From a virus: a DNA stretch of 64,000 nt. Each line of letters starts with the position of its first letter. Position 1 is the first letter of the stretch. Of the stretch, positions 22,305 through 49,324 are shown piece by piece. Both the position numbers and the translations under genes were made by a program. A model generated the notes under the pieces. It made no database searches, was not told where the DNA came from, and saw only the letters and a program-made list of their open reading frames with translations. Where the stretch lies: the IMG/VR virus record IMGVR_UViG_3300027977_000009; one strand, given 5' to 3'.

Positions 22305-22384
22305 TAAATAAAGATGTAGTTCGCGGTACTGCAAATACCCAACTACTCTAATGCTAAGAGGAGCGATCAGCATGACTATTTATA
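22305..22384 (+). ncRNA. Conserved endonuclease-leader element, copy 1
   Basis: TAAATA; GTAGTT-CGC-GGTA-loop-TACC-C-AACTAC-TCTAA-TGCT-AAGAGG-AGCG-ATCAGC-ATG; covaries with copies 2 and 3. Confidence 0.75.
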
Positions 22385-23040
22385 CCCACCATCTTTATTG
22401 GATTCATCTTCCAGAGCATACTGACTACACTAAGGAAGGGTACATAGGCGTTTCTAATAACCCAGCCAGACGACTTTACGAGCATAAGAATGATTCTAAA
22501 AACCGCAACGACAAAAATCCTTATTTCGGTAGAGTCCTCAAAAAACATCAAGATAAAATAATCCAAACAATATTGTTGACCGACACCAAAGAAAATTGTT
22601 ACAGACAAGAGGAAATACTAAGACCTGAAAAAAACATAGGATGGAATGCTAATAAAGGCGGAACAAAACCTCCGTCTAAATTAGGCTGGAAACCAAGTGA
22701 AGATACCTTAAAGAAAAGATCAGAATCATTAGCAGGCATTCCTAGGAATGATGTTTGGCGTAAAAATTTATCAAAAGCTAAAAAAGGCGAAAGGAACGGA
22801 ATGTATGGGAAAAAAATATCCTGCACCGACAAGAGAAAATTATCTATTATAGTAGCAAAATATAAAAACAGGGGCGAAAATCTAAGGTTAGCACTTGATT
22901 TGCTAGAAAAAAGCAATCACCGAATACGAGAAATTTCAAAACTAACAGGTATCTCTACTGGCGTTATATGTAAGATAAAGAAAGAAACAGAGTTATATAA
23001 TTTAGCTCTTCCAATAATCATACAATCTAAAGCTAGCTAG
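22372..23040 (+). CDS. Free-standing GIY-YIG homing endonuclease with NUMOD3-like repeats
   Basis: LYWI...GYIGVS...RRLYEH...GWN; KGERNGMYGK; antisense to neighbours. Confidence 0.85.
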   Translation: MTIYTHHLYWIHLPEHTDYTKEGYIGVSNNPARRLYEHKNDSKNRNDKNPYFGRVLKKHQDKIIQTILLTDTKENCYRQEEILRPEKNIGWNANKGGTKPPSKLGWKPSEDTLKKRSESLAGIPRNDVWRKNLSKAKKGERNGMYGKKISCTDKRKLSIIVAKYKNRGENLRLALDLLEKSNHRIREISKLTGISTGVICKIKKETELYNLALPIIIQSKAS

Positions 23041-24018
23041 GTTCTTGGCCTTTGCCTCCACCATAACATCTGCCCAATCCCAGTGCCCTTTAGCCCAATC
23101 ATTGACTGCTTTATTCCACATATAGTCAGAATGTGCCCGCAACTTCTGCTTGTTCAACCCTTGTTCTAGCAGAAGTTGAAGGTTAGGCAATTCATTAGTA
23201 AGATGTGATGACAAATATTCTTCACGACTTACACTGTAATGAATGACAGGACGTACACCACGCCAGCTATCGATCACGCGCTTGATACGGTCGTCATTGG
23301 GTTCGATATATTCACCAGTCATTACATAGTGATGATGGATATCTAGTACGAGAGCGCAGGTATCAGCGAGTTCTAGACTGCTATCGATACCCCAAGTCAT
23401 CTCGTCATTCTCGATAGTGATGCAATTACGAGCCTCGGGGCTTAGTCGAGACATTACCTTCTTGATACCGTCGGGGCCCTGACGACCACTGATATGAACA
23501 TTGATCTTCATGTCCTGAAAAGTCTTGCCATAGCCCATCCAACGTGCCATGTCAACATGATATTCGAATTCTCGGATACTGTTTTCTACGACTTCTTCGC
23601 GATCACTAGCAAGGACTACAAATTGATCGGGATGAAATGATAGACGGACACTGTTCTTGCGTGCAGTCTCACCAATCGGAGCCATCCAACGTGCTAGACT
23701 GTCTTGCACATCTTGCCGCGACCAAAAATAATGATAATCGGGATGCGTGTAGAAACTCAACATATCACTGGTGATACGCAACATGCGTAGTTCGACAGGA
23801 AGAGTCGCAATTTTTTTGACGAGTGCGTGAGTGTTTAGGATGTTACGCTTTGCGACATCTAGGATCTTTTCTTCGACCACACGTGAGTTGTTCTGACGTT
23901 TTGCCCATGCGAGTGTGGTACCGCCTGTATTGAATCCATCGACACTAGCGATCTCACCCTTAGTATTGATTTCTGCAAACTTACATGCGAAACCAATTCG
24001 TTTGACACCATCATTCAT
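23002..24018 (-). CDS. uvsE: UV damage endonuclease
   Basis: RLSFHPDQF, INVHISG, IENDE, LDIHHH, IHYS, RAHSDY, MVEAKAK. Confidence 0.9.
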   Translation of the reverse strand: MNDGVKRIGFACKFAEINTKGEIASVDGFNTGGTTLAWAKRQNNSRVVEEKILDVAKRNILNTHALVKKIATLPVELRMLRITSDMLSFYTHPDYHYFWSRQDVQDSLARWMAPIGETARKNSVRLSFHPDQFVVLASDREEVVENSIREFEYHVDMARWMGYGKTFQDMKINVHISGRQGPDGIKKVMSRLSPEARNCITIENDEMTWGIDSSLELADTCALVLDIHHHYVMTGEYIEPNDDRIKRVIDSWRGVRPVIHYSVSREEYLSSHLTNELPNLQLLLEQGLNKQKLRAHSDYMWNKAVNDWAKGHWDWADVMVEAKAKNLASFRLYDYWKS

Positions 24019-24051
24019 AGATAAATACTCTCATAATATAAGGAACCGTTA

Positions 24052-25278
24052 ATGGATATTCGTAACATCTTAGATATCATAAGTGAAAATTCTCGGCCTG
24101 TCAAGCAAAAAACACCTGTTTCGGGTGGGTTGCCGGCGATGTCTCTTGAAGATTTTCTTCTCAGTGCAGGGGTAAACCCACAAGAAGTAGAAATTGACGA
24201 AGCAAAATTAGCGGCCCCCGCAAGACCTTTTCCAAAAGACGAATTAACAAAATACTTAAGCAGGACTGTAGGTACCGATACAGGCAAGGTCAACAAAGCA
24301 GGCGGCAAGATTCGCAAGAGTGAAAAGACTAAACAAGATAAGTTCAATATGCCATACATTCATAATAAGAATGTTCCCATCGTCGATGAAGCAAATAAAG
24401 AATATGATCTAGAAAAGCTAAGAGCTATGATTACCAAACGTCCGGCAAAAGTTCTCAAGCAAAATGAAAAGATGCAACATAGTGATGGTACTGCTAGTGC
24501 GTTTTACAACATTGGACTTCCTGCTCTGAAAGGCCTAGCAGTTGATGAAGATACCGGTGAGTTCGTGATCATTGACACTTGTCCTGGCGCCGGCGAATGC
24601 CAGACATATTGCTATGCAATGAAAGGTGACTATATCAGGTGGACGAGCCCATCACTCGAACAGTCTAAGCTATTGAACTTCTTGTATAATGATCCGCAAG
24701 GATTCATGGATATGCTAGGAAACGAGATCGAAGAACAATATAAAAAGCTAAAAAAAGTCGATAAGAAGAAAGGTACTGAAACTAAACTTATCATTCGTTG
24801 GCATGATGCTGGTGATTTCTTCTCACCGGAATACCTTAACTATGCGTATACCTTAGCTAAGAAGTATCCTGACGTATCTTTCTATGCGTATACTAAATTA
24901 GCAAACGTTGCTCAAGGTAAATCTCCGGCTAATTTTAAAATGAATTACTCGATGGGCGCGAAGCCCAAAGAAGAACAACAGATCGATTTCGCAACTACTA
25001 AGAATAGCCGAGTTGTTCCTGAAGTATTATTCAAAGACGTTCTTGATAGGGTAGAAGGTAAGCTCGTATATAAAGATCAATCATCGATCAATGTATTGAA
25101 GGCTCGAATCGCTGCTAAATATAGTGTCAAGCCTAATACAATATTGACCTATGACGAGATGATGAAGAAGCCAGTCAGTAATGAAAAGGGTAAGTATAAT
25201 GTCATTGTTAAACCGGGAGACGGAGATGACTCTGCTAACCGCAATGACGTGCTTAACACATTTCTATTAATGCATTAG
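24052..25278 (+). CDS. Gp88-like protein with CTS-like N-terminus
   Basis: TCPGAGECQTYCYA (CxxxxxCxxxC), IRWHDAGDFFS, FYAYTK; MDIRNILDIISE; TAAATA upstream. Confidence 0.65.
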   Translation: MDIRNILDIISENSRPVKQKTPVSGGLPAMSLEDFLLSAGVNPQEVEIDEAKLAAPARPFPKDELTKYLSRTVGTDTGKVNKAGGKIRKSEKTKQDKFNMPYIHNKNVPIVDEANKEYDLEKLRAMITKRPAKVLKQNEKMQHSDGTASAFYNIGLPALKGLAVDEDTGEFVIIDTCPGAGECQTYCYAMKGDYIRWTSPSLEQSKLLNFLYNDPQGFMDMLGNEIEEQYKKLKKVDKKKGTETKLIIRWHDAGDFFSPEYLNYAYTLAKKYPDVSFYAYTKLANVAQGKSPANFKMNYSMGAKPKEEQQIDFATTKNSRVVPEVLFKDVLDRVEGKLVYKDQSSINVLKARIAAKYSVKPNTILTYDEMMKKPVSNEKGKYNVIVKPGDGDDSANRNDVLNTFLLMH

Positions 25279-26126
25279 GAAAGTTTCAACAACTCGTTAA
25301 ACGAATATAGATTTTTCATATAGGGGGACACTTCTTCTAGTACGCTACAAGATATGTCCCCTTTTCTGCGGGGTCCAATCTTTATCTTGATACCTGCTTC
25401 GTCATCATCAGAATAAATGGTTTCTGCGTTTACCATTTCAAATTTCTCAAAGATTTCCAGTACCGAATATCCTACACCATGACCCAAGCATTCTACTTTA
25501 TTGGCAGGTTGCTCGATAGCCATCTTGATTGCTTCACATACTTCGTCTACGTGAACATAATCTCGAATGCAGGTACCGTCTGGGGTATCATAATCATCAC
25601 CAAAAATAGTAAACTCTTTCGTGTCAGCAGCCTTCATCAGGTTGTACATCAACCCGTCTGGATTAGTAGGAGGATAACCCGATGAACCGATCACGTTATA
25701 GAATCTAAAAATCGTATATGGCATAGTCTTATGCTGGGTACAATATTCACGAACCACATCTTCTGCTGCTCGTTTCGAGATTCCATATGCACTCTTGCAA
25801 TGTTCTGCTGCACCGGTCGATGCAAAAATAAAGTTCTGTGTCTTTACTTTATTGATTACATTCATCGTCCCATTCAAATTAGTAATATAATACTGAATAG
25901 GCATATTTTCACTCTCGCCAACATTTACAAGTGCAGCAAGATGCACAACTATATCGAATTCTAAATCAATATTCAACGGACGATTGATATCAAGTTGAAA
26001 GAATTCCTTGACTGGATGCAATGGCTGCCTAATGTCAAGTCCATATACTTCGTAATCTTTCTCAAGCAATTTACAAAGATGTGATCCAATGTAGCCCGAA
26101 CATCCTGTTACTAATATCTTTTTCAT
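25275..26126 (-). CDS. galE: NDP-sugar 4-epimerase (GalE-like)
   Basis: GCSGYIG, HLAA, YGISK, RFYNV, DGTCIRDYVHV. Confidence 0.85.
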   Translation of the reverse strand: MKKILVTGCSGYIGSHLCKLLEKDYEVYGLDIRQPLHPVKEFFQLDINRPLNIDLEFDIVVHLAALVNVGESENMPIQYYITNLNGTMNVINKVKTQNFIFASTGAAEHCKSAYGISKRAAEDVVREYCTQHKTMPYTIFRFYNVIGSSGYPPTNPDGLMYNLMKAADTKEFTIFGDDYDTPDGTCIRDYVHVDEVCEAIKMAIEQPANKVECLGHGVGYSVLEIFEKFEMVNAETIYSDDDEAGIKIKIGPRRKGDISCSVLEEVSPYMKNLYSFNELLKLS

Positions 26127-27466
26127 AGTCCCTCGAATAATCCCAATCCAACCATTTCCTCAGCTGGTTCAAAGTTGGGTTCTTTAGTCAGATATGTATT
26201 GGTATCTGTATAAATCACCCTAAACTTATTCTTGTTCATCAACACCGACTTGATGTCATCGATGCATAGGATACCCCGATTCAATCCATTTATAAAATCT
26301 ATGTACTTAATAGTAGTTTCTTTACAAATCTTAGCCGTATTGCTATTAGACGTTTTTGGTTTGAATGAATTGAAACACTCATTCCATTTATGGAACACTT
26401 GGCTTTCGATCTTATTCGCATTTACCAAAGCTCCCTTAATATACCATGCTTCAGCGGTATCGAACATCTCATATGCCTCTCGCACGTCGTTTGCCATGTT
26501 TTTCTTGTCGGTTTCAAAGAAAAACTGAGAAGAAAAGTTTTGAGTCCATCGTTGATTCATTAAGCAGAAAGTAGGTAATTGCATAGTCTGTTCATAGAAA
26601 GCCATACCATAGCTTTCGACTGTGCTGGGGTTAAATGCTATCCTAGCACTCGTGATGAAGTCTACTTTTTCTTTGCCGATAATGCCCACCTTGATCTCAT
26701 AAGTAGCATTGATTTTCTTCAATCGTTCTTCAAACTTCTTAGCTCCGGCTGCGCTTGTCATTACCTTAGCTGGCAAGTTAGTCTGTTCGATCAGATCGAT
26801 AAACAACTCGGGGTTCTTCCCTTCTTCCCAACGTCCAATGAACAACACACCTTCTCTAGGCTTGACGTACTGATTTAGTAATTCTTTCTCAGTTACTGGA
26901 ATAGGAAGATGAGTAGCTGTATTATCGAACTGAAGTTCATTGAACTTGCTTTGTGTACCGATAGTGATGTTATTCATCTGCAACTGCAATCGCATCATCT
27001 CATTGGTGCTATGAAAGAATGGATTCTTCGTATCTTTGAAAATCTGACTCTCAAGATGAGTATATGCGATGACCTGTACGCATTCATCAAGTCCCATAGT
27101 ACTCGCTACTTGAATAGTTTCATAGGTATTACATACTAGTACGTCATAGATGTTGGTAGTGAATGCTTTAACGATAGCATTACGGAAATTGGCCATTCTT
27201 TCATAGCAAAAACTATCTTCATACATAAAGATAGCACTATGATCGGTATACTTGAGTGGGATGTCTGGATAGATCACCCTAGCATCGAATGATTCTAAGA
27301 ACTCTGTGCTAAGTCCTTGCGGAGCTTTGTCGGTTATGATATCTACTTTAATTCCATGACTATTCATCGTTTCACAGAAACTCTTAGCGAACTGTCCTAT
27401 TCCGCCGTGTGGAATTAAGGTCTGAGAACTGACTAGAAATCCAATACGTTTGTTATAGGTATTCAT
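26123..27466 (-). CDS. GT-B (family 4-like) glycosyltransferase
   Basis: GGIG, FIGRWEEGKNP, PSTVESYGMAFYE (ExxGxxxxE). Confidence 0.8.
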   Translation of the reverse strand: MNTYNKRIGFLVSSQTLIPHGGIGQFAKSFCETMNSHGIKVDIITDKAPQGLSTEFLESFDARVIYPDIPLKYTDHSAIFMYEDSFCYERMANFRNAIVKAFTTNIYDVLVCNTYETIQVASTMGLDECVQVIAYTHLESQIFKDTKNPFFHSTNEMMRLQLQMNNITIGTQSKFNELQFDNTATHLPIPVTEKELLNQYVKPREGVLFIGRWEEGKNPELFIDLIEQTNLPAKVMTSAAGAKKFEERLKKINATYEIKVGIIGKEKVDFITSARIAFNPSTVESYGMAFYEQTMQLPTFCLMNQRWTQNFSSQFFFETDKKNMANDVREAYEMFDTAEAWYIKGALVNANKIESQVFHKWNECFNSFKPKTSNSNTAKICKETTIKYIDFINGLNRGILCIDDIKSVLMNKNKFRVIYTDTNTYLTKEPNFEPAEEMVGLGLFEGL

Positions 27467-27475
27467 ATTTTACCT

Positions 27476-28330
27476 TTACGTTCCCCAGCGGTTACCAAAC
27501 AAAGGTAGATGTAGTCGATCACTATATCTGACACCATACTTCATTGCTAACTCGGCAACTGTAAGGTTATTCAATTGATATACACTCTCTACTCCACCGA
27601 CGGGCATGAAATATACAGGCCCCTCAAAACCCTCATCACGATATAGCTTAGATACTTCAAGTGCTTCCTGAGCATCTTCTTCTGTAGAGATCACAAACTT
27701 GAGGTATGCATAGCCAAATTTCTCATATTCACGCACAACCTTAGGTTTGATCGCACTCTTATGAGACTCACCGGAACAACTTAACTTAGGACTGACGCTA
27801 AAAGTGATTTCTCGTTCAAATCCCGGATATACTTCTGGCCAGCTCCAGTCTTCAAGATAGTGTGCGAACTCAGGTGAAAGTTCCTGTGTACCATTAGTCT
27901 CAAAAGTAATCTCTTTGAGACCCGCCATCTTAGGATGACTCAAGAGTTTTGGGAAAGCTCGCTGCCATCCAAGTAGTGGTTCTCCTCCTGTGATGACAAG
28001 ATGTTCGTTTTTCCATTCTTTAAACGGTAGTAGTTCCATGATGTCATCAACAATGGTATCAATGTCCTTACTAGGAGAAAGATGCTTAAATCGAGGGTCC
28101 CATGAGGCGTAAGAATCGCAACCAGTGGTGACGAGTGGGAGAGAATTGTAATCTTTGTAAACTTTCGGGTCGATCTTTTTCCGTTCAACAGACGTTTCTC
28201 CCTTAGGCATACCAAATCCTCCACACGTGAAGTTGCAGCCAAACGTTCTTAGGAAAATGCTAGGTACGCCTTGATACCTGCCTTCACCCTGAATAGAATA
28301 AAATAGTTCACTAATCTTGATTTGCGTCAT
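27476..28330 (-). CDS. queE: 7-carboxy-7-deazaguanine synthase (radical SAM)
   Basis: ELFYSIQGEG, FLRTFGCNFTC...CDS, ITGGEP, ETNGT, SVSPKL. Confidence 0.92.
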   Translation of the reverse strand: MTQIKISELFYSIQGEGRYQGVPSIFLRTFGCNFTCGGFGMPKGETSVERKKIDPKVYKDYNSLPLVTTGCDSYASWDPRFKHLSPSKDIDTIVDDIMELLPFKEWKNEHLVITGGEPLLGWQRAFPKLLSHPKMAGLKEITFETNGTQELSPEFAHYLEDWSWPEVYPGFEREITFSVSPKLSCSGESHKSAIKPKVVREYEKFGYAYLKFVISTEEDAQEALEVSKLYRDEGFEGPVYFMPVGGVESVYQLNNLTVAELAMKYGVRYSDRLHLPLFGNRWGT

Positions 28331-28476
28331 TGTCTCGTTCTTTTAGATATTCTTCATATGTCTTATATTTGTCGCCCGATTTGTAAATCCAACCTTCATA
28401 TAAGTTATCTGGATCGTAGAAAGGAATAGAATACAAATGCCTACCATTCTTAGCATCTATATAATTCACAATTTTA

Positions 28477-28899
28477 TTATGCATCTATGCATTCTTCTCT
28501 TAGGTATCGCACTAATTCTTTATCAGTAGGTTGTACAGCATAGTTGTTCTTAAAGAAAATCTCATAACTATCACTGCCATACTTTCCTATACCATAAAGA
28601 ACTTTAGCATCACTCTTGTCCCATGTCAAGTATTGATTGGACATCCTTCTAATTCGGTTTTCCCGAACAATGACTAATCCAAGCGGACGTATAACTTCAT
28701 ATACTTCTTCGCTCGTACTTGTCAAGAACTTCTCACATGTGTCCCATCTAGATAAGAATTCAGGAAGGACCCTTTTTACCAACAACCTATGAGTCTGGTT
28801 CAGCATGATCACCCCTACCATATGTTGCCACTCGGATGTAATCTGTTGTTGAACCATTAGCTCGTCACATAACGGAACGATATTCACTACTTCCACCAC
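28477..28899 (-). CDS. HhH-GPD DNA glycosylase, MBD4-like
   Basis: IMLNQT, IRPLGL...R, LYGIGKYGSDSYEIF, PTDKEL. Confidence 0.8.
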   Translation of the reverse strand: MVEVVNIVPLCDELMVQQQITSEWQHMVGVIMLNQTHRLLVKRVLPEFLSRWDTCEKFLTSTSEEVYEVIRPLGLVIVRENRIRRMSNQYLTWDKSDAKVLYGIGKYGSDSYEIFFKNNYAVQPTDKELVRYLREECIDA

Positions 28900-29441
28900 C
28901 GCTCCCAGGGAAATCGAATAGCGACCGGATCTTCAATTTTGTTTATGGCTTCCCCAAAATAGTCGATTCCTTCAAAATCACTTGCTTCGTTCTCTACCAA
29001 AACAGCAAACTTCACATTATGATTCCAAACTGAATCCCAAGCTTCTTTTTGATCCGGGAAGCAGCTATTAATCCAATCTTGTTTAATCCAATCAAAGGTC
29101 ATGCCGCTATCATTGATGTCATCCACGATCAGGATATTTTTACGCTTTTTGGTATCCCAACGACTTTTTATGACAGGGCGATCATCCGACGAAACATACC
29201 CAAATGCATCTTCAGACATCCAGGCATTTAGTTCAGTATCAGGGGGATCGCTGCGCAAACTGACTTTTAGTGTATGCATTGGAATATTCAAATAATGGCT
29301 AATCATTAGAGCAGGAACTAATCCTCCTCTGGTAATGCCTACAACATAATCAGGTCGAAACTGGTCTACAGTAATCTGTCTTATGATGTTATGAACCATA
29401 CCGTCAATCTGTTTGTCAGTGTAATATACTTTCTTAGTCAT
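28887..29441 (-). CDS. Type I purine phosphoribosyltransferase (Gpt-like)
   Basis: VGITRGGLVPA, ILIVDDINDSGMT PRPP motif, FPWE. Confidence 0.88.
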   Translation of the reverse strand: MTKKVYYTDKQIDGMVHNIIRQITVDQFRPDYVVGITRGGLVPALMISHYLNIPMHTLKVSLRSDPPDTELNAWMSEDAFGYVSSDDRPVIKSRWDTKKRKNILIVDDINDSGMTFDWIKQDWINSCFPDQKEAWDSVWNHNVKFAVLVENEASDFEGIDYFGEAINKIEDPVAIRFPWERWWK

Positions 29442-29470
29442 TATATACTTTCTTAGTCATTATATACTTT
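29424..29470. repeat. 19-bp tandem duplication over the PRTase start codon
   Basis: ATATACTTTCTTAGTCATT x2 plus partial ATATACTTT. Confidence 0.9.
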
Positions 29471-29523
29471 TTATATCAATAAATTATTATATACTATTTA
29501 GGTTAGGTTGTCAAGAAAAAAGA

Positions 29524-29602
29524 TAAATAAGCGTGAGTCACGGAACTCCCATTCCCACTCACTCTAATAGTTGAAAAGGAACTACCAGCATGTCTATTTA
29601 TT
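29524..29602 (+). ncRNA. Conserved endonuclease-leader element, copy 2
   Basis: TAAATA; GTGAGT-CAC-GGAA-loop-TTCC-C-ACTCAC-TCTAA-TAGTT-GAAAAGG-AACTA-CCAGC-ATG. Confidence 0.75.
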
Positions 29603-30288
29603 CTGTCTTTACACCCTATACTTACTTTATTATGTGGCGAGGCACCAATACCAAATATTATGGCTGTCAGTACGGCAAAAAAGCTAACCCAGAGAACATA
29701 CTGACCGGTCGATATACTACATCGTCAGTTAGTGTCAATGAACATTGGCAAAAGTACGGGCCTCCAGATATAGTTGTTATTCATCGTACTTTTACTACAG
29801 CAGCAGAATGTAGATTATATGAGCATACTTACATAAAAAGAGTAAAGGCGGTGTATAAGGAAGATTGGCTTAATAAATCCGATAGTAAAGCAATTTTAAC
29901 AGACAACTACTCGGATTCTTCATGGAAGAATAGTCACAAAAGTAGGCGGAGGCACATGGAAGAGGATCCGGAATTTCGGAAATTTATGGTAGATAGATTC
30001 GTTAACCTGATGCAATCGGATGCAGCAAATTTAAAACGAAAAGAAACGTTCGTCCGAACAAAGCATTCGCAAGGAGAGAACAATCCTAGATTTGGTGCTA
30101 TACTGACCCCTGAAATTTTAACAAAAATCTCAGAGGCCAGAAAGAAACAATATTCTTTAAATAAATCATTGGCAAATAAGCTAAACCAAAAGAATCGTTC
30201 GTGTGAATATTGCGGCAAGTCAGGACTTAATGCTGGAAATTATAAAAGATGGCATGGAAATAAATGCAAAATAGCGGGAAATAAATAA
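29590..30288 (+). CDS. Free-standing Seg-like (GIY-YIG) homing endonuclease
   Basis: PYTYFI...KYYG, YE...WLNK, GENNPRFG, CEYCG...YKRWHGNKCK. Confidence 0.8.
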   Translation: MSIYSVFTPYTYFIMWRGTNTKYYGCQYGKKANPENILTGRYTTSSVSVNEHWQKYGPPDIVVIHRTFTTAAECRLYEHTYIKRVKAVYKEDWLNKSDSKAILTDNYSDSSWKNSHKSRRRHMEEDPEFRKFMVDRFVNLMQSDAANLKRKETFVRTKHSQGENNPRFGAILTPEILTKISEARKKQYSLNKSLANKLNQKNRSCEYCGKSGLNAGNYKRWHGNKCKIAGNK

Positions 30289-30307
30289 TTATTCCCCACT
30301 GATTCTA

Positions 30308-30787
30308 TTATAGAAACTCGCCGTCTTCTCTATGGCCTTGCCTGTATGCCATGTTTGATGGGGTTTCTCTCACTTCTACTTTCGCACACCAAACTCTTGC
30401 AGCCTCTGCCTCGCCGCAGGATGGAAGGAAAATAGTATTCACATATTCATACAGGTAATCTGCAAGTCCCTCGCATCCGGTCTTTTCAACCTCAATTATC
30501 TTTGCCAATCCTAATTCTCCTAGTTGCTTAATGGTATCATAGTATGGATCATCTTGGGCTAAAAGTAATACGTGGTCAAAATTATCTTCTAGGAAATCCT
30601 TAAGTGGCCGGAGCCCACCGTAATCAAAACACCAATTTCGGGCGTCAAGGTCATCGCATTCAAATTCAAATTTGAAAGACAATGCATAGCCGTGTATTAA
30701 ACGACAGTGACTATCCGCTCGCCATTGCCGATACGCCAGAGGCGCAAGGTGTGAATATTCTTTAGTTGATACATATTTTTTTGTCAT
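30308..30787 (-). CDS. queD: 6-carboxy-5,6,7,8-tetrahydropterin synthase
   Basis: HCRLIHGY, DYGGL, FDH, GCEGLA, VEVRET. Confidence 0.9.
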   Translation of the reverse strand: MTKKYVSTKEYSHLAPLAYRQWRADSHCRLIHGYALSFKFEFECDDLDARNWCFDYGGLRPLKDFLEDNFDHVLLLAQDDPYYDTIKQLGELGLAKIIEVEKTGCEGLADYLYEYVNTIFLPSCGEAEAARVWCAKVEVRETPSNMAYRQGHREDGEFL

Positions 30788-30851
30788 CTTTTTTCTCCTT
30801 TAGATGACACGCAGAATGTTTATAGTGGGAATGAGTGTCAAAGACCACTGT
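30782..30851 (-). promoter_or_regulatory. Pseudoknot riboswitch candidate, copy A (queD leader)
   Basis: P1 AGUGG/CCACU, P2 UGACAC/GUGUCA; alternative 8-bp hairpin UGUCAUCU/AGAUGACA over the start codon. Confidence 0.65.
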
Positions 30852-30993
30852 TAATAAGCATACCGACGATTGATGTAGTCAAGGATATCCTCAACTTCAC
30901 AAAAGCCTTCTGCATTATAAATCTGATTTAGATCAAGACCATGATCCTGATATCCTTCTCCGAGCATATTTGATAATAGTTGCCTGGTTGATT

Positions 30994-31071
30994 TGCCATA
31001 TTTTAATCTCCTATATTAGCATAACATAGGCGGCAGAATTTGTCAAGCGGGAATGACGCCAAGACCGCTGT
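30994..31071 (-). promoter_or_regulatory. Pseudoknot riboswitch candidate, copy B
   Basis: P1 AGCGG/CCGCU, P2 GGCG/CGCC, same UCUU, UCAUUC, UUCUGC linkers; alternative hairpin CCUAUGUUA/UAAUAUAGG over the SD. Confidence 0.65.
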
Positions 31072-35309: not shown

Positions 35310-35320
35310 TTTATATTCCT

Positions 35321-39603: not shown

Positions 39604-40541
39604 GCTTTCACCTTATTAATTGTATTTTGTTTATCTAATTTAAATTCAGATTCCCACACCGTATACGTGCGAAACCCAAGATCAGTTGCTGTCTTCAATT
39701 TTTTACTATCATATTCTTGAATCTCTAATGCAGTACGACCCCGAATAACTGCATCATTTTTATATAAAGACGGATTCGCATGCCAGTAATCACCGTTAAA
39801 TTCAATTATACAGTCTTTGTGTTTTATATCGTATATCACATATGTTCCTAAGAAAGAAGACCATCTTCCGTAGGGTCTAGTAAACGTAGTATACTCTAAT
39901 GATCCATAATTGTCAATCAGCATGGTCGTAAATTCTTTTTCTATGTTGGAACCCCAAATATTACCGGGATATACTACCCGGTTTAAAATTAGTGTGACCG
40001 CTTCATCAAGGGATATTCCCAATTTAGTTGCTACTAATTGCGGATTAAATGAGCTACCTTTTTCGATATTTAACTGTAGAAATCTAGACGTACCCTCTTC
40101 AGTTCCATACTTGTTAACGAAATAGGTTTTACTATTGGTGTATGCTTGTCGTTCACAATACGCTAGCCACTTAGTAGTACCTAACTTTTCCCCATGACGG
40201 GCAATCATTTTTTCTAAGGTCTGTGCCCTAGACGAATTATACTCATTATACTGTTCAACTGTCCATCCGTGTTTTTTACGTTTGTACTCAAATGAATTAG
40301 AATCCGCTTGTTTAACTTTGTATTGGTTCCATCGAATCGTACCCTCTTCTATCCCATACTTTTCAATCAATCTCTCTTTTGTAATAGCCGTTTTTGCGGC
40401 AACATCCGCTGATACTAACACGGCTTGAGGATATGCCAACTTGTATTCTTTGGAATTAGAAAATTTACCTGTGCAGTTATACTTAAAATGAGTCCACTGT
40501 AGTCTACTAGTTTCCATTCCACATTCTAAACACTTTATCAT
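39579..40541 (-). CDS. Vsr-like homing endonuclease between split-intein halves
   Basis: CLEC..H; KYGxEEG repeats; YDI...IIEFNGDYWHANP...VWESE. Confidence 0.85.
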   Translation of the reverse strand: MIKCLECGMETSRLQWTHFKYNCTGKFSNSKEYKLAYPQAVLVSADVAAKTAITKERLIEKYGIEEGTIRWNQYKVKQADSNSFEYKRKKHGWTVEQYNEYNSSRAQTLEKMIARHGEKLGTTKWLAYCERQAYTNSKTYFVNKYGTEEGTSRFLQLNIEKGSSFNPQLVATKLGISLDEAVTLILNRVVYPGNIWGSNIEKEFTTMLIDNYGSLEYTTFTRPYGRWSSFLGTYVIYDIKHKDCIIEFNGDYWHANPSLYKNDAVIRGRTALEIQEYDSKKLKTATDLGFRTYTVWESEFKLDKQNTINKVKAWMQSGQK

Positions 40542-40574
40542 ATGCTGATACTCCTATCAGCATATATTTATGCG

Positions 40575-42773: not shown

Positions 42774-43030
42774 TAATCAGTACGACCAACAGTCTCCAAG
42801 ATATTATTTAGTTCAGCGTTTTCGTCATTCGTCTCATTCAAACGAGCCTTATGAGCCACTTTAATCGCTTTCTTGAGAGTGCTTGGCTTGATCTCAAGTT
42901 CCTCAGCGATTGCCTTAATTGTGTCATTGAGGCCTTCGTTTAATGCCTCAACCTCTTGTAATACACCCATACCTTCATGGACTAAGTTAGTTAGTTTTAG
43001 TTTAGCTTCGGAATTGAATACTCTAGACAT
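42773..43030 (-). CDS. DsbA/GapR(DUF2312)-like dsDNA-binding protein
   Basis: 85 aa from MSRVF with AGGAG RBS; helical pattern IKAIAEELEIKPSTLKKAIK. Confidence 0.6.
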   Translation of the reverse strand: MSRVFNSEAKLKLTNLVHEGMGVLQEVEALNEGLNDTIKAIAEELEIKPSTLKKAIKVAHKARLNETNDENAELNNILETVGRTD

Positions 43031-43107
43031 GTTTACTCCTTCTAGTCTGTTCAGTATATAGCAACAGCAAAGCAAGTCAAGGTTTTTATTGAGCAGTGTG
43101 CCCAATA

Positions 43108-43821
43108 CTATTGGAAGATATAATTGTGATCTGCGCCATATATCTTGATGTATTTTCCGGCTAAGAGGTCTGCCATCGCCTCAATAGGACTACCGGGATA
43201 ACTGGAATCTGGCTTGATCATGTTAAGCTCACCTTGTCTTACGTGTACGAGTTCGTGAAAGGTGGTTCTCAATATGTCTACCAGATTACGATTCTTAGCA
43301 TAGACCCAGATACTGTCGGCACCTGGCGTATGACCGCCGGTATGATGGTTGGTTTGGGCCTCTTCGGTGTCCATACTTAATTCGATTTTTACAGGATTCT
43401 GTAGGTTAATTTTCTTGCTGGCCCAATTGGCAAACTTCTGCACTTCATCAGCTAAATCAATTTCACTAGTTGTCTCGTTTAGCTTATTTTTTATCCAATG
43501 ATCAGGTGTAGATTTGAATTTCTTTTTAAACAAGTCATGTAATGCTTTGCTGGTGATTTTGTGCTTACGAGCAATTTTTTTCATCAATGTGTCAATCGCA
43601 TTATAATCATGCTTTGCGAGTGAGGGGAGTCTTTTGGCTAACTCTAACTCTGGCGCCTCGTTGATGCTCTCTCCGCCCCCGCCATCGCCCCCGCCACCTG
43701 ACTCGCCCGAATCACTAACGCCAAAAAAGGTATACCCTGGATAGAAATATCCTCCATACGCCTTTTTCCCGGGCTTTTTTCTTTTACGCTTACGTTCGGT
43801 GATGAATTCAGTAGCTCTCAT
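43108..43821 (-). CDS. CTS-tagged modular protein with C-terminal zincin-like metallopeptidase domain
   Basis: MRATEFITE; internal INE/LNE; HELVH...E. Confidence 0.7.
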   Translation of the reverse strand: MRATEFITERKRKRKKPGKKAYGGYFYPGYTFFGVSDSGESGGGGDGGGGESINEAPELELAKRLPSLAKHDYNAIDTLMKKIARKHKITSKALHDLFKKKFKSTPDHWIKNKLNETTSEIDLADEVQKFANWASKKINLQNPVKIELSMDTEEAQTNHHTGGHTPGADSIWVYAKNRNLVDILRTTFHELVHVRQGELNMIKPDSSYPGSPIEAMADLLAGKYIKIYGADHNYIFQ

Positions 43822-43889
43822 AATATATATATTTATCATTAGATATGGAAATGGCGACAATGTTAATTGCCGCCACTCCGTTAGTCTAT

Positions 43890-44453
43890 TTAGAAATTAC
43901 GAGTTACCGAAACACCGACAGTTTCGTTATCGAAAGTACCTCGAGTACGATAGTATCCTGCACCAAATGAGGTCTTGTCACTAAATGCATAAGAAAGTCC
44001 GAGATTCAAACGATCTTCATTGAGGTAGTCATTCGCAAATCCTTCACGATGACGATATCCAGCAACCACTGACACTGGACCAAATATAGGCCTAGTAAGC
44101 TTCACGCCAGCACCCCAAAACTCACCGTTGTTACCATCAGCGAGAACTCCCCCCAATTCGCCGTATACAGCAGTTTGGACGCCGAAGTAAGACGGACCGT
44201 CGACTCCTGCCTTGACAGAAAAGGCAGCTTGGAGCTCACCTTCACGAGCAGCTTGGTTAGCTTGAAGCTCAGCTCCGACATTAACCTTTCCAATAGTATC
44301 CCAGGCTTCGACCCTATATTCAGTCGAATCAGCACGGGCACCGCCCCGTGCATCACCAAAATGAACTTCACCTGTCACCATCGGTTCTGCTAAAGCAGGG
44401 GTAGTAAAGGCAACTAGCGACATAGCCGCTGCGATTGTAAATAGATTCTTCAT
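43890..44453 (-). CDS. Outer-membrane beta-barrel protein with signal peptide
   Basis: Sec signal ending ALA; alternating beta strands; terminal Phe. Confidence 0.75.
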   Translation of the reverse strand: MKNLFTIAAAMSLVAFTTPALAEPMVTGEVHFGDARGGARADSTEYRVEAWDTIGKVNVGAELQANQAAREGELQAAFSVKAGVDGPSYFGVQTAVYGELGGVLADGNNGEFWGAGVKLTRPIFGPVSVVAGYRHREGFANDYLNEDRLNLGLSYAFSDKTSFGAGYYRTRGTFDNETVGVSVTRNF

Positions 44454-44586
44454 GCTTTTCCTTTGTTTAAATCTGACTACGATTATCGATAGTCAGTAAT
44501 AGTATATAGCATTGGCCCATGCTGTTGTAAATTTTTATCGGGTGATTGGGATAATGCCGGTGCCCTTTTTGCGGTAGCCATTTAAA

Positions 44587-44616
44587 AAGTGTCTCAGTTT
44601 TCACCGAGACACTTTC
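44587..44616. terminator. Hairpin terminator
   Basis: AAAGTGTCTC...GAGACACTTT with T-run on - strand. Confidence 0.6.
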
Positions 44617-44640
44617 TAGTTGATAGGAACACGAATAGAT

Positions 44641-44967
44641 TTAGGAATAGATGCTTTTCGGTGCAGGGGGTGCTGAGAAAGTAGCAAGAACTTCGTTGAA
44701 CTTTTCGAGGCTCTGTGAAGCCAGTTCTTGCATTACTTCACGATCTGAAGGTATCATTTTGGAGTACCGATTCAGGAATTGTTGAATGATGTGGCGAGGA
44801 ATTATAGATTTGCTACCGTCCTTAAACGTGATAGGATAGTTCTTAAGGTTAAGTGCTTTCCTAAGCTGCATAACAATATGAGGAATCTTGTCCTGTTCAG
44901 GATCGGGAGCTTCTTCTTCATCCCAATCGTCGTGTGCCGATTCATTAAGCAATTCGTTAATCTTCAT
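44641..44967 (-). CDS. CTS-tagged hypothetical protein
   Basis: MKINELLNE; TAAATA upstream. Confidence 0.6.
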   Translation of the reverse strand: MKINELLNESAHDDWDEEEAPDPEQDKIPHIVMQLRKALNLKNYPITFKDGSKSIIPRHIIQQFLNRYSKMIPSDREVMQELASQSLEKFNEVLATFSAPPAPKSIYS

Positions 44968-45047
44968 GTCTTAATCCTTTGTATTATTTATCAAAGTGAA
45001 GCGAAATGCTCTTAGTAAATTTACTATAGCAAACTTAGTTTCCGAAG

Positions 45048-45527
45048 TCAAGCCTTTTTTATCAATTCTCGCCAAAAAGGACCTTGAATGGGGTCTGCAC
45101 TTCTCTCTGGATATAACTGGCTGTTCAATTTTTCTATCCATTCTGGAGTCATGTGACGATTACGATATTGTCTAGGGAAGATATGCACTTCTTGAACCTG
45201 TGTTCCTTCTAAATCTTGTAAGGCGATCATTCGGTTTCTACCTTCGTGTCCTGAAACTCTAGCAGGACGAGAAAGATCACCGTCTTCCCATTCTTCAGGT
45301 ATGTCTATCAATAGAAACGGAGCAGCAAGTTTTCCACCTTGTTCTAGATGTTGCAAGATAGCTTTTGAACTAGTTGGTTCTGTCAGGCGTGCGGCCAACT
45401 TGAGGAAAACTGATGGACGCATACGGACACGCAGCCCCATATAATCAACGTTTTGGTTGTTAGAGGTAGCTCCCCAACCATTTACGTTGTCCATTTGGTG
45501 TTCAGTTAAAAATTCGTGCGCTCGCAT
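45048..45527 (-). CDS. CTS-tagged ParB/Srx-like protein
   Basis: MRAHEFLTE; PFL...HEGRNRM. Confidence 0.55.
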   Translation of the reverse strand: MRAHEFLTEHQMDNVNGWGATSNNQNVDYMGLRVRMRPSVFLKLAARLTEPTSSKAILQHLEQGGKLAAPFLLIDIPEEWEDGDLSRPARVSGHEGRNRMIALQDLEGTQVQEVHIFPRQYRNRHMTPEWIEKLNSQLYPERSADPIQGPFWRELIKKA

Positions 45528-45530
45528 TGT

Positions 45531-46730
45531 TTATCCAGATGCAGGTTGATTATAAAATTGCATGATGGCATTAAATTTCTCTTCCCGATCGGATAATCCC
45601 CTCAAGCCTGAATTGATTGGTTTAGTGACTTCACGAGTATCTTTAAAATTACTAACTTTAGGTTGTACTCTAGTCTGCCAATACCATAGTGTTGCTTTAG
45701 CTGCGATGTCAGGACGTTCTAACAGTTCGGGTTGATCTTCTAGCGGGAGACCTAATGCTTCGCCTGCTTTCCTATAATTGTAACGACCGGTCAATTGAAT
45801 GTATCCGCGCCCACGATAGCGGGCGCCGTCACCTGGTTCAGTATTCCCGAGCATCTTGGCTTTCTGCGGATCATGTTGTATGTCGTATTTTCTAAAATAA
45901 GTGGGGCCACCAAACTCCTTTAGTGAAGTAAAGTTTTGAGTTTCATGGGCACATTGTGCGATAAGTTGTGCTAACTCTGCGCCCTCGATTCCGGCAATAG
46001 CAGCTTCTCTCCTAAGTGCCTTCGCTATTGGATTATTGATAAGTGCATTAACTCGTTGTGTTATTTCTGAGTCAACTTTTGGTAGTTGTTTGCTGATTGG
46101 TCGAGGAGTAGGAGCAGGTTTATTTGGGTCAGGAAGAAAAGTGTGACCAGCTAAAGCTAGAGCACCAGCAGCCGCAAGACCCTTGGCCGCGCCCTTCCAA
46201 CCTTCTTCTAACTCTGATTCTTTTAATGCCTGTTTGAGAAAATTTGCACCGATGACGACCGTGTCACCGACTTTTACTGATACTTTCTTACCAGGAATTA
46301 TCTCAGCGTTAACGATTTGTATCTTGTACTTTCCTTTAGGTGAGATATCAAGTATCTTACCTTTAAGGATGGAATAATGCGGATAGTTCTTAGTGAGATC
46401 AAGTACTCTACCTACTTCTTCATATATAAATTCATGTAATCTCATAATTTCACCTTCAAACACACTTCCGCTAGGGCTGCCGGTTCTTCTGATAGCGTGA
46501 ATGCCTTTACTACCTGGCTTATTGGTACCGCGTTTTGTCAACGATTGTGTTTCACCAAGTTTTCTAGAACGATGTAGGAAAAGTCCCATTGTTTGTGGAG
46601 TAATTTTATATTCCTTAGCGATATCAGCCCTGCTAAACCCTGACGCATACAGGTCAGCAATCTCTTGTTGTTGTTCAGGTGTTGGGCTAAAGGGAGGCCT
46701 TCCTTCAGTTATAAATTCAAACGCTCTCAT
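45531..46730 (-). CDS. CTS-tagged fusion: HTH + small domain + GH19 chitinase/lysozyme
   Basis: MRAFEFITE; HTH (SRADIAKEY); AQCAHET, LGNTEPGDGARYRGRGYIQLTGRYNY, INSG. Confidence 0.85.
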   Translation of the reverse strand: MRAFEFITEGRPPFSPTPEQQQEIADLYASGFSRADIAKEYKITPQTMGLFLHRSRKLGETQSLTKRGTNKPGSKGIHAIRRTGSPSGSVFEGEIMRLHEFIYEEVGRVLDLTKNYPHYSILKGKILDISPKGKYKIQIVNAEIIPGKKVSVKVGDTVVIGANFLKQALKESELEEGWKGAAKGLAAAGALALAGHTFLPDPNKPAPTPRPISKQLPKVDSEITQRVNALINNPIAKALRREAAIAGIEGAELAQLIAQCAHETQNFTSLKEFGGPTYFRKYDIQHDPQKAKMLGNTEPGDGARYRGRGYIQLTGRYNYRKAGEALGLPLEDQPELLERPDIAAKATLWYWQTRVQPKVSNFKDTREVTKPINSGLRGLSDREEKFNAIMQFYNQPASG

Positions 46731-47734
46731 CGCTGTGCTTGATCAGGACGTCCAAATAGATGATTCATCTCTTCTTGACTAGCAGTATTTTCCGTAGTAG
46801 AGTTGTATGCAGTTGGATACATCCTTTTAATTCTTTCAATTTCTTCAGGAATATTCCAACCGCCCCGTGTACCCATTTGTTCAGATGCATTCTTTAATTC
46901 TTCTGAACGTGACGATAATGCATCGGCGATTTTCTTCATCAAGCCAGGAAACAAATCAGCGAATTGATCTTCGCCCACGTTATAATCTTGTGTAGCATTC
47001 TTTAATTGACGAGTTGAAGTGTGCATCTGCCACTTGCCGTTTTTATCATCCATGTTCTTTTTATCAACGATACTAACGATAGGGCCATCTCTTGAATAAC
47101 GTTCGAACCAAGTTAAGCCGCTGCTGCTTCCTGTGCAGAACTGTCCTTGAGCACCTTCTGCATTATTAAAGATATAGCAAGAACCATAGTTCAACGGAAC
47201 AATAACATAATATCTGTCATCATCAATAAGAACGATTTGTTTAGAATTTTTCTTCATAGATGCCAACTTTTCAGCATCGGCAATTTTTCTTAATGCTGCA
47301 CCATACTTTTCTTTGCGAACTACACTTTGCAGTTGTGCAATAGATGTAAAACGATTGAAGTCTTGATCTACAGGATCAAGTAAGTTGCGAACACTCAATG
47401 CTTTCCACGCACCTAATGCGTCACCGCCTTCGCCGTTAATGTCTTCATAGTCGTTAATGTGATTGATGTACAACTTTGTTAGCCAACTATCAAATTTACC
47501 ATCTCTAGACAAGTCACCGTAGTTAGTGTTTGATAGAGTTCTATCGATCAGATCACTCCACATTTTAACTACATCTTCGTCGCTTGCTTTGGGTCCCAAT
47601 CTTGCTAGCATAGGTCCAGGAATGGTATGATCATGCTTAACAGCAATTGCTAGCATTTTTGCCATCTTGGGATCTCTGAGGACCTTCTCCCCTGGATTGG
47701 CTTCTGATAATTTAGTTCTTGATAGTTGTTTCAT
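46727..47734 (-). CDS. Hypothetical protein with divergent PcfJ-like (W/FCT) domain
   Basis: VIVPLNY...FCTG...WFERYSRDGP...KWQMH, resembling the two WCT paralogues downstream. Confidence 0.5.
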   Translation of the reverse strand: MKQLSRTKLSEANPGEKVLRDPKMAKMLAIAVKHDHTIPGPMLARLGPKASDEDVVKMWSDLIDRTLSNTNYGDLSRDGKFDSWLTKLYINHINDYEDINGEGGDALGAWKALSVRNLLDPVDQDFNRFTSIAQLQSVVRKEKYGAALRKIADAEKLASMKKNSKQIVLIDDDRYYVIVPLNYGSCYIFNNAEGAQGQFCTGSSSGLTWFERYSRDGPIVSIVDKKNMDDKNGKWQMHTSTRQLKNATQDYNVGEDQFADLFPGLMKKIADALSSRSEELKNASEQMGTRGGWNIPEEIERIKRMYPTAYNSTTENTASQEEMNHLFGRPDQAQR

Positions 47735-47745
47735 GTCTAGCCTTT

Positions 47746-48765
47746 TTATGGGTGCAGCAACGATTGTTTTAGGTAATTCATGAGAGTTGTTAGTTTCTGT
47801 TGATCGCCGTTTGCGATATCATCAATCACTTTTTTCACGCCCTCTTGATTTTGTGGTCCGCCTCTGCCATATCTCTCGACCCCTAAAGTAAAATTACCTG
47901 TTTCATCTGGATAAAAATGACTTGCTGTCAGATACAATGCGGGTTTTAATCTGTCTTTTATTTTAGCGGGGACATCTTTTGGATCGTTGATTAATTCTTG
48001 TTTTATATTTTGTAAATTATTTAGGATCTCTAACTTCTGTTTTACTTTCTGGAAAGAATCGTTCTTTAATGCCGTACCAGTGACACCTTTAATGTCAGCG
48101 ATTGCTTTATCTATATATTTTATGTAGAGAGGACGTAATTTATATAATACTGCTTGCATATTCTGTGACTGGGGTGCGTTTGGGTCTAATGTGTTTGGTT
48201 TCGTAATTTTTCTGGCCACTCTACGGTCCGCGCGTAATCTGTCTACAGGTCCTGTTGTATGTGTAGATGCCCCGCGACCCCAGGCTAATTGACCGGCATT
48301 AATAGCAGACCAGTAGTTTCTGATTTGGCCGATAGTTTCTTTGATTTGCCTAAATAAGACATTAATACTACCGTCACTAAATTTTGTTATGCCCTCTTTA
48401 CTAGATAGCACGACTACCCAACGAGAACCATCCCACTTTATCGCACCGGTACCATCTTTACCTTGAATGAGTACATAGTTAGGTGATCTACTTTTGATGT
48501 CTGCCCAGGTTATTTTTTGTTCTTCTCTCCATCGGATATCGTGCGACATAGCTAACTCTTTGTGTACATACCTAACGAGTGCGTCAGCGTATGGACTTTT
48601 GCGAACGGCTGAAGTGATGGTTGAGTCTTCATCTAGAATTTCCTCAAGTAGACTAGTCACAGTAGTGTGCAGTGCTAAACGAGCAGGATCATTCGCCGCA
48701 ACTCTGTGTGTCACTCTCGGCTTGAGGATGTTGATGTTTTCTTTAAATAGTTCTGTACTTCTCAT
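47746..48765 (-). CDS. CTS-tagged hypothetical protein
   Basis: MRSTELFKE; internal LLEE/LDE. Confidence 0.6.
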   Translation of the reverse strand: MRSTELFKENINILKPRVTHRVAANDPARLALHTTVTSLLEEILDEDSTITSAVRKSPYADALVRYVHKELAMSHDIRWREEQKITWADIKSRSPNYVLIQGKDGTGAIKWDGSRWVVVLSSKEGITKFSDGSINVLFRQIKETIGQIRNYWSAINAGQLAWGRGASTHTTGPVDRLRADRRVARKITKPNTLDPNAPQSQNMQAVLYKLRPLYIKYIDKAIADIKGVTGTALKNDSFQKVKQKLEILNNLQNIKQELINDPKDVPAKIKDRLKPALYLTASHFYPDETGNFTLGVERYGRGGPQNQEGVKKVIDDIANGDQQKLTTLMNYLKQSLLHP

Positions 48766-48767
48766 TG

Positions 48768-49208
48768 TTATGCCCTTGCAGTCTTTAGGATACTTCTAAG
48801 CATCCATACTTTTTTAGAATATAAGTCTTGTAAATCCGCCATGTAGTTAGCTATCCCTTGCTCTCGGGTTTCAGTAGCAACGTCAAATATAGTTTTCACT
48901 AATTCAACCATATCAGATGAATCACTCAACAATTCTTCAAACATCAAAGCCGCTCGCGGTATTTTATGTTGTTCCCGTACTATACTAAGTTCCAATAGGC
49001 GAGACAGGTTACCTGGAGTATAGGAATCTAGTGAGCGTATATGCTCACCCACCGTGTCGATTGATTCATATACCTCTGAATAGAATGAGCCTAGAAACTC
49101 ATGGTATTGTGGGAAATCACTACCTTCAACATTGAAATGGAAACCGTGTATCTTAGTGTACAAGACAAACGTGCTTCCTAACAATGTTTTTAAGTCATCT
49201 ACTAACAT
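48768..49208 (-). CDS. dps: Dps/ferritin-like DNA protection protein
   Basis: HGFHFNVEGSDFPQYHEF, IDTVGEHIR, KKVWML. Confidence 0.88.
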   Translation of the reverse strand: MLVDDLKTLLGSTFVLYTKIHGFHFNVEGSDFPQYHEFLGSFYSEVYESIDTVGEHIRSLDSYTPGNLSRLLELSIVREQHKIPRAALMFEELLSDSSDMVELVKTIFDVATETREQGIANYMADLQDLYSKKVWMLRSILKTARA

Positions 49209-49243
49209 TACTTTATCCTTATGTAGTATTTATCATTATGGCA

Positions 49244-49324
49244 TAAATATAGATGTAGTTCGCGGATCTAGGCAATCCCAACTACTCTAATGCTATAGAG
49301 GAGCATCAGCTATGTGTATTTATT
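49244..49324 (+). ncRNA. Conserved endonuclease-leader element, copy 3
   Basis: TAAATA; GTAGTT-CGC-GGAT-loop-ATCC-C-AACTAC-TCTAA-TGCT-ATAGAGG-AGCA-TCAGCT-ATG. Confidence 0.75.

Follow-up and report, generated by a model that had tools for sequence, protein, structure and literature searches.

A covarying leader cassette with convergent late-promoter-like boxes, and possibly a cis-antisense RNA, precedes homing endonuclease genes of uncultivated T4-like phages

Large lytic phages carry homing endonuclease genes as their main selfish elements, and what is known of how such genes limit their cost comes only from a handful of examples in T4, where every gene has a hairpin of its own. The 64,000-nt stretch of DNA analysed here, which we call the window, is taken from the IMG/VR virus record IMGVR_UViG_3300027977_000009 and raises the question of what a structured leader does that recurs in front of three nuclease genes, and on which strand its structure is selected. 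A first-pass annotation of the window had located the leaders at 22305, 29524 and 49244, and these positions were recovered both by re-reading the sequence and with a covariance model. All three cassettes lie on the + strand and are flanked by - strand genes. We propose, with a probability of roughly 45%, that each leader would hold two convergent late promoters and a cis-antisense RNA of ~65–75 nt over the nuclease 5' untranslated region (UTR) and Shine-Dalgarno sequence (SD), similar to art200 of IS200 and RNA-OUT of IS10.

Each leader consists of a late-promoter-like box ATAAATA (the forward box), a 6-bp helix P1 around a 4-bp helix P2, the motif TCTAA(T), a 3–5-bp helix P3 that holds the SD in its loop and 3' arm, the motif CAGC, and ATG. 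At all three window sites the start codon is followed by TATTTAT (NNT-ATT-TAT after the ATG). This motif, the forward box as read on the other strand, is termed the reverse box below. On the - strand the same DNA folds into two adjacent hairpins, A and B. The components and the genes behind them are as follows.

Site 1:
22304..22310, + strand, forward late-promoter-like box (NATAAATA type)
22316–22321/22341–22346, P1, and 22325–22328/22336–22339, P2
22316..22346, bipartite hairpin P1 + P2 (hairpin B on the - strand)
22348..22370, SD helix, P3 lengthened by the TCTAA/CAGC pairing (as hairpin A on the - strand it has an anti-SD loop)
22377..22383, - strand, reverse late-promoter-like box inside codons 2–4
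22300..22371, - strand, predicted cis-antisense RNA with two hairpins and a U-rich tail (putative ends; two-hairpin minimum free energy (MFE) -16.1 kcal/mol)
22372..23040, + strand, GIY-YIG + NUMOD3 homing endonuclease gene, start codon ATG at 22372

Site 2:
29523..29529, + strand, forward box
29533–29538/29557–29562, P1, and 29542–29545/29552–29555, P2
29533..29562, bipartite hairpin P1 + P2, or hairpin B
29564..29588, SD helix, extended P3 or hairpin A, with nine continuous pairs on the - strand
29595..29601, - strand, reverse box in codons 2–4
29519..29589, - strand, predicted cis-antisense RNA (putative ends; MFE -19.6 kcal/mol, z -1.73)
29590..30288, + strand, putative homing endonuclease gene, start codon ATG at 29590 (no Pfam match; weak PHROG matches to homing endonucleases)

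Site 3:
49243..49249, + strand, forward box
49255–49260/49280–49285, P1, and 49264–49267/49275–49278, P2
49255..49285, bipartite hairpin P1 + P2, or hairpin B
49287..49309, SD helix, extended P3 or hairpin A
49317..49323, - strand, reverse box in codons 2–4
49239..49310, - strand, predicted cis-antisense RNA (putative ends; MFE -19.7 kcal/mol, z -2.08)
49312..49917, + strand, HNH_3 homing endonuclease gene, start codon ATG at 49312

A covariance model built from relatives matched the window at exactly these three sites, with scores of 79–93 bits and E-values of ~1e-19 to 1e-23. The relatives came from two pattern scans of IMG/VR. The first used conserved letters of the P1/P2 region and returned 76 loci, all 76 of which were true instances with the entire cassette, including the parts outside the pattern. 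The second used letters from the 3' part and returned at least 120 further stretches. Together, the scans yielded at least 192 loci and about 200 distinct leaders. At least 165 distinct leaders fit one regular expression, and more were found by the covariance model. The sets of 165, 161, 155 and 110 leaders used below are samples among the matches listed. The contigs that carry the element number in the hundreds and belong to uncultivated T4-like phages, and several have two or three copies. Host assignment through prokaryote genomes produced just a few short, probably mis-binned contigs of metagenome-assembled genomes from unrelated phyla.

To evaluate covariation outside the training data, the model was trained on the set from the first scan and tested on loci from the second, among which were 110 distinct leaders outside training. 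Standard pairs filled 97.3% of the pair cells in these leaders, compared with 68.4% after shuffling and 29–46% with slid partners. There were 418 cells with double-sided changes, and compensatory changes occurred at all 13 pairs, in agreement with the covariation of the three stems that had been noticed from the window copies alone. The pairs of P1, P2 and P3 ranked at the top by mutual information, and no partner was found outside the helices. The first-pass annotation had not recognised the leader as a named family, and this view held: Rfam 15 gave no match in the whole window at gathering score, and no match at E ≤ 1 was found in three element-bearing loci. The element is thus widespread, strongly covarying and uncatalogued as an RNA family, and its recurrence in three copies is not due to chance.

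The larger alignment changed the anatomy at several points. The supposed internal loop, described as fixed CRC opposite C, contains an R:Y pair (22:46) that was G:C in 69, A:U in 12, A·C in 29 and G·U in none of the 110 leaders. This pair is flanked by two bulged C residues, C21 and C23, which were invariant in 110 of 110 leaders. The motifs TCTAA and CAGC had been taken for fixed linkers, which was wrong: TCTAA(Y) is complementary to (R)(Y)CAG, and the two form opposite sides of one helix that lengthens P3 to 8–9 pairs. Two further pairings were considered and rejected. A pseudoknot of CAGC with the P2 loop is contradicted by the third base of that loop, which is variable although CAGC never changes, and by mutual information, which gave no partner outside the helices; an alternative P3 pairing with the CAGC-AUG region exists for the commonest P3 allele alone and shows no covariation.

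The reverse box is likewise a conserved part of the element. Of 55 leaders whose 3' part was not constrained by the search pattern, 52 had TATTTAY, which lay 5 nt after CAGC in 43. The encoded products usually start M-x-I-Y, and codon 3 was ATT in 45 of 45 open reading frames (ORFs), compared with 38.5% of the Ile codons elsewhere in the same ORFs. When the ATG is shifted by one or two bases, the box is retained and the product begins M-I-F-I or M-Y-L. Because the distance between the box and CAGC survives these frame shifts and codon 3 is always ATT, TATTTAT is conserved at the nucleotide and not at the protein level. The reverse box was also kept in four of four unconstrained leaders that had no forward box. 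As for RNA-OUT and art200, an outward-facing promoter, here a candidate recognised at the sequence level, lies inside or beside the 5' end of the ORF. The earlier description of the whole structure as lying downstream of the promoter overlooked this second, facing box inside the ORF, together with the evidence for selection on the opposite strand.

A helix that is selected in RNA tolerates G·U but not A·C, so the non-Watson-Crick cells indicate the strand on which the structure is maintained. At free columns, A·C on the gene strand, which is G·U on the opposite strand, occurred 203 times, compared with 34 for G·U on the gene strand. The corresponding counts were 19 vs 0 in P1, 4 vs 0 in the P3 core, 29 vs 0 at pair 22:46 and 76 vs 1 in outer P3. 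One pair of the extended helix was A·C in every sequence, equivalent to U·G on the opposite strand. Predicted stabilities point the same way. By MFE, the opposite strand was the more stable one in 148 of 155 leaders, with means of -16.3 kcal/mol for the opposite and -11.2 kcal/mol for the gene strand, and its fold advantage is not compositional, because it persisted against dinucleotide shuffles (z -1.57 on the opposite strand and -0.59 on the gene strand). When one set of 48 diverse regions was folded on both strands with RNAalifold, the opposite strand reached 19 pairs (-19.99 kcal/mol) and the gene strand 10 pairs (-13.17 kcal/mol).

The - strand fold of all three window copies consisted of two adjacent hairpins followed by a U-rich tail. 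In opposite-strand order, the element comprises the reverse box, 5 nt, G-CUG opening hairpin A, one unpaired base, hairpin B and the U-rich tail. The loop of hairpin A is the anti-SD, hairpin B corresponds to P1/P2 with the two bulges, and the tail corresponds to the forward box together with the A-rich spacer, both read as their complement. The mean free energy of hairpin B was -10.4 kcal/mol, and 154 of 161 leaders had at least five U in eight in the tail. Of the 12 leaders with no forward box close by, 9 kept the U-run beside the hairpin. A stable structure selected on the antisense strand, as in RNA-OUT and art200, was thus found, and the evidence consistently suggests that the structure belongs to the opposite strand.

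The downstream genes were uniform in kind and diverse in family. All 52 distinct downstream proteins examined look like homing-type nucleases, with domains of NUMOD3 (20), HNH (9), HNH_3 (6), GIY-YIG (4), HNH_5 (4) and Endonuclease VII (1), and no non-nuclease cargo was apparent among them; the nuclease association seen in the window extends to the larger sample. In the window itself, of the two GIY-YIG genes first counted, one was verified, at 22372–23040; 49312–49917 is HNH_3, and 29590–30288 has no Pfam match. Identical hairpin sequences preceded at least four protein families, as expected of the portable cassette that the first-pass annotation had envisaged for nucleases of different catalytic families. 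Leader and ORF are joined at codon 4, as can be seen from the products, all of which either start M-x-I-Y or retain the same nucleotides in another frame. In several contigs the cassette outlives its nuclease cargo: at least six leaders were intact, with full model scores, in front of ORFs truncated to 9–48 codons (L006, L010, L011, L047, L002 and L027:8701–8808). Two reduced forms were also observed. A simplified leader-like element at L039:10616–10686 (- strand) had a box, a single plain hairpin, an SD, a start and a near-box, and scored 27 bits. At L061:4688–4773 (- strand) there was a remnant of the box and hairpin B, in which the SD helix and ORF had been replaced.

The forward box is probably a late promoter, as its position before resident ORFs suggests. 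In T4-like cyanophages, NATAAATA is accepted as the late promoter sequence (PMC2984593), and in the window the box lies 8–32 nt upstream of at least ten resident ORF starts with an SD. A late box stands directly upstream of the endonuclease ORF at all three window sites and in most leaders, with a distance to P1 of 5 nt in 91 leaders and 3 nt in 50. One sub-clade (L008, L025, L039, L097, L164 and L173) lacks the forward box; in its members a run of A5–6 abuts P1 and the reverse box is intact. The cassettes are not tied to one orientation. All three window copies do lie opposite to their operons, as first noted; among 52 cassettes in general, however, 26 oppose both neighbours while 21 are co-oriented with both. 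At the co-oriented loci the upstream ORF ends at the forward box.

Under our favoured reading, a self-contained cassette of ~80 bp would stand in front of each nuclease gene and govern its expression and control regardless of orientation, by means of two T4-type late promoter boxes that converge from ~75 bp apart. The forward box, 3–5 nt ahead of hairpin B, would drive the nuclease mRNA. The reverse box, in codons 2–4 and 5 nt from the invariant CAGC, would drive a short opposite-strand RNA that starts with the complement of CAGC. This RNA would fold into hairpin A, with 8–9 bp and the anti-SD in its loop, and then directly into hairpin B, which together with the U-rich tail would act as the intrinsic terminator. 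The resulting antisense RNA of ~65–75 nt would cover the nuclease 5' UTR and SD with full complementarity as far as the start codon. The hairpins of the two RNAs would mirror each other, so that the mRNA could form a kissing contact through its SD loop with the anti-SD loop of the antisense RNA, and a full duplex would then block the ribosome or invite RNase III, with less nuclease translation or a shorter mRNA life as the outcome. The strand asymmetry would fit such a scheme, with A·C mismatches weakening the SD helix of the mRNA and so keeping it translatable, and G·U pairs keeping the antisense helix strong. Such a small antisense RNA would throttle the nuclease much as insertion sequences throttle their transposases. 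The firing of both boxes, the start and end positions of the RNAs and repression by the antisense RNA are predictions from sequence.

Several points weigh against this reading. The column statistics ignore phylogeny. On the gene strand, G·U occurred in 10 cells at the apical pair of P2 and in 23 cells at the loop-closing position. In the core helices nearly every pair is Watson-Crick, and selection may therefore act on the gene-strand RNA as well; part of the A·C excess could reflect selection for a weak SD hairpin in the mRNA rather than for a strong antisense hairpin. The tail is U-rich yet interrupted and the stem is bulged, and a simple terminator scan made no call. In addition, a megablast search with the region and a blastn search with the leader found no match in 50,697 cultured phage records.

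The alternative that the structure works in the nuclease mRNA itself, as a sense-strand cis-regulatory leader of the T4 kind, seems unlikely to us, although more likely than the other alternatives. P1/P2 at the 5' end of the late transcript would stabilise the RNA or bind a phage protein through the two bulged C residues, and P3 would tune access to the SD; transcripts started upstream would pair the box with TATTTAT and form a three-way junction over the start codon, so that late transcripts alone would be translated, following the logic of I-TevI, mobE and segB. P1, P2 and P3 do form on the gene strand too, the forward box lies just 5 or 3 nt before P1, and the two Cs never vary. The box is perfectly complementary to TATTTAT, each of the three window copies shows the outer helix in its MFE or centroid fold, and read-through transcripts would exist at co-oriented loci, where the upstream ORF ends at the box. 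The T4 paradigm is documented (PMC2988022), and similar hairpins appear in what the report of Dassa et al. 2009 describes (PMC2677866). Nevertheless, the modelled pairing probabilities of long and late transcripts were alike (0.49 vs 0.47 for the SD and 0.56 vs 0.58 for the AUG), and partition-function folding showed that only TATTTAT was more paired in the long transcripts. TATTTAT also survives loss of the forward box, and just one of five box variants was compensated. At the 3-nt spacing, the usual start distance from the box falls within P1, and both the wobble census and the folding energies favour the opposite strand. Sense and antisense RNAs may nonetheless both matter.

An opposite-strand device could instead serve the neighbours, as an embedded late promoter for the next resident gene, as an insulating terminator formed by hairpin B and the U-tail, or as both; phages would keep it since deleting the start of the nuclease gene would remove it. 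We regard this as rather improbable. Embedded promoters for downstream host genes are documented inside T4 seg and mob genes (PMC2988022), no further late box precedes the resident genes of sites 1 and 2, and at least six leaders are intact despite a truncated nuclease ORF. A sigma-70-like -35 hexamer occurs just past the tail on the opposite strand in the window and in 43 of 165 leaders, and 23 of these 43 also have a -10-like hexamer 16–18 nt further; the spacers are unrelated. In the 21 of 52 co-oriented cassettes, however, an opposite-strand promoter would merely yield antisense RNA to the upstream gene, which contradicts the reverse box as the neighbour's late promoter in general, and the box, helices and tail are equally conserved there. 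A terminator between the reverse box and the neighbour also contradicts a promoter role. Least probable by far is an element that acts at the DNA level or is bound by the nuclease, be it a single-stranded DNA (ssDNA) mobility hairpin, an operator, or a guide or scaffold RNA in the style of HEARO or omega-RNA. The constant association with nuclease genes would fit it, and I-TevI binds an operator over its own late promoter (PMC2988022). The partners, however, come from unrelated catalytic and DNA-binding families, and the nuclease-bound RNA suggested at first is unlikely given its GIY-YIG, HNH and Endo VII partners. Compensatory changes are not expected of a duplex-DNA operator. There was no Rfam similarity, the HEARO type included, the element is just ~80 nt long, and no transposase or HUH gene occurred among the neighbours examined; the ssDNA mobility signal that had also been suggested found no support.

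The cis-antisense reading has its closest parallels in insertion sequences. Antisense control of IS10 by the pair RNA-IN/RNA-OUT has been described (PMC5006887). In this element, two promoters face each other across a few tens of bp where the gene begins, and RNA-OUT is a ~70-nt stem-loop antisense RNA over the SD and start codon that acts on every copy. The cassette shares with IS10 the convergent promoter boxes and a predicted short stem-loop antisense RNA over the SD at the 5' end of a mobile gene, and differs in an overlap of about 60–65 nt and in having two hairpins. The left end of IS200 contains the antisense small RNA art200, an SD stem-loop and a terminator hairpin (PMC4513863). In both systems, the nuclease or transposase gene of a selfish element stands behind two hairpins, one terminator-like and one over the SD. 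In contrast to IS200, the element described here is a phage homing endonuclease cassette with T4-type late boxes and an antisense promoter placed in codons 2–4; the two have no sequence similarity, and the antisense RNA of the cassette is a predicted one.

Among phage systems, the hairpins of I-TevI, I-TevII, I-TevIII, segB and Aeh1 mobE (PMC2988022) resemble the cassette in having a late promoter directly upstream, structure around the SD, and confined or damped expression. However, the T4 late promoter lies inside the SD-sequestering hairpin, and each hairpin is idiosyncratic (PMC2988022), whereas the cassette is one conserved three-helix element on ~200 genes of several families, with its main hairpin downstream of the box and a better fit on the opposite strand. 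In the T4-like cyanophage S-PM2, the antisense RNA CfrI lies over a homing endonuclease gene (PMC2984593). CfrI is similar in being antisense to such a gene in a T4-like phage, but it is ~225 nt long and links the endonuclease gene to psbA (PMC2984593), and it is not a conserved 5' cassette.

The published description that comes nearest is that of Dassa et al. 2009 (PMC2677866). The hairpins described there lie in 5' UTRs, often with TATAAATA, and are accompanied by two complementary conserved motifs; they precede free-standing GIY-YIG and other endonucleases in 'fractured genes' of ocean metagenomes (PMC2677866). As far as that description goes, the hairpins were read as translational only, and it includes no family, covariation or strand analysis (PMC2677866). 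Judging by that description, they are probably the same element. The setting differs from the one described there, as none of five co-oriented cassette loci examined was a split-intein locus. We therefore set aside the 'fractured gene' setting for these five, which were flanked by ordinary phage genes (TnsA-like, T4 gp15-like, NUDIX, AhpC and carbamoyltransferase). To the first-pass annotation, the present analysis adds a second promoter box, base pairing between the motifs once taken for linkers, and the opposite-strand evidence.

A single strongly covarying element on ~200 nuclease genes is a general, testable regulatory module and a candidate entry for RNA family databases. The covariance model is also a sensitive marker of free-standing endonuclease cassettes and late promoters in uncultivated T4-like phages. 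If the antisense reading is true, phage mobile nucleases would have converged on the self-limiting logic of bacterial insertion sequences, and the cassette would be a phage counterpart of transposase antisense control. The promoter would then be embeddable in the universal M-x-I-Y start, and new nuclease ORFs could be captured by recombination there. Tentatively, and with somewhat more doubt than belief, this could be the first conserved antisense-RNA family dedicated to homing endonucleases, a modular IN/OUT cassette with a promoter in the first nuclease codons, onto which unrelated ORFs would have been repeatedly grafted at codon 4 and which might act in trans among the copies in one genome.

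The window cassettes are surrounded by unrelated resident genes, namely those for a virion protein, UvdE, a phosphoribosyl transferase, a QueD-like protein and a ferritin-like protein, and promoter-like sequences were found close to each site:

22266..22295, - strand, sigma-70-like promoter (TTGACA and a -10-like hexamer) beside site 1, facing the gene at 21820–22242
29486..29514, - strand, perfect sigma-70 consensus promoter (12/12; TTGACA-17-TATAAT) beside site 2, facing the gene at 28887–29441
49227..49233, - strand, late box that belongs to the resident gene 48768–49208, 18 nt upstream of its ATG and placed back to back with the site 3 cassette

The cassette may either insert beside early promoters or carry one. 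In the sub-clade without a forward box, the - strand -35 hexamer comes directly after the A5–6 run. A direct tandem repeat of ~19 bp, with two copies and a partial third, was observed at 29424–29465, placed in the promoter and 5' region of the - strand gene 28887–29441 and just upstream of the site 2 cassette.

The DNA polymerase of the window was ~47% identical to those of PA5oct-like jumbo phages and had broad matches among T4-like phages; on one other contig, a T4 gp15-like tail gene adjoins the cassette. Resident - strand genes at 23002–24018, 28477–29441 and 30308–30787 include those for a UvdE-type UV endonuclease, an HhH-GPD glycosylase-like protein, a phosphoribosyl transferase and a QueD-like 6-pyruvoyl-tetrahydropterin synthase; these genes hint at DNA repair and 7-deazaguanine-type base modification in the phage. 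A fourth + strand gene among - strand genes, at 24021–25278, encodes a 408-aa GP88-family protein; a late box of its own stands 24 nt ahead of the ATG, and there is no structured leader. At 40541–40571 (- strand), a late box stands ahead of a perfect 7-bp hairpin with GGAG in its loop and an AUCAGCAU-AUG context; the gene concerned is the resident one that follows the DNA polymerase. This hairpin resembles the SD helix of the nuclease leaders, and the SD-in-loop design may be general in late genes of the phage.

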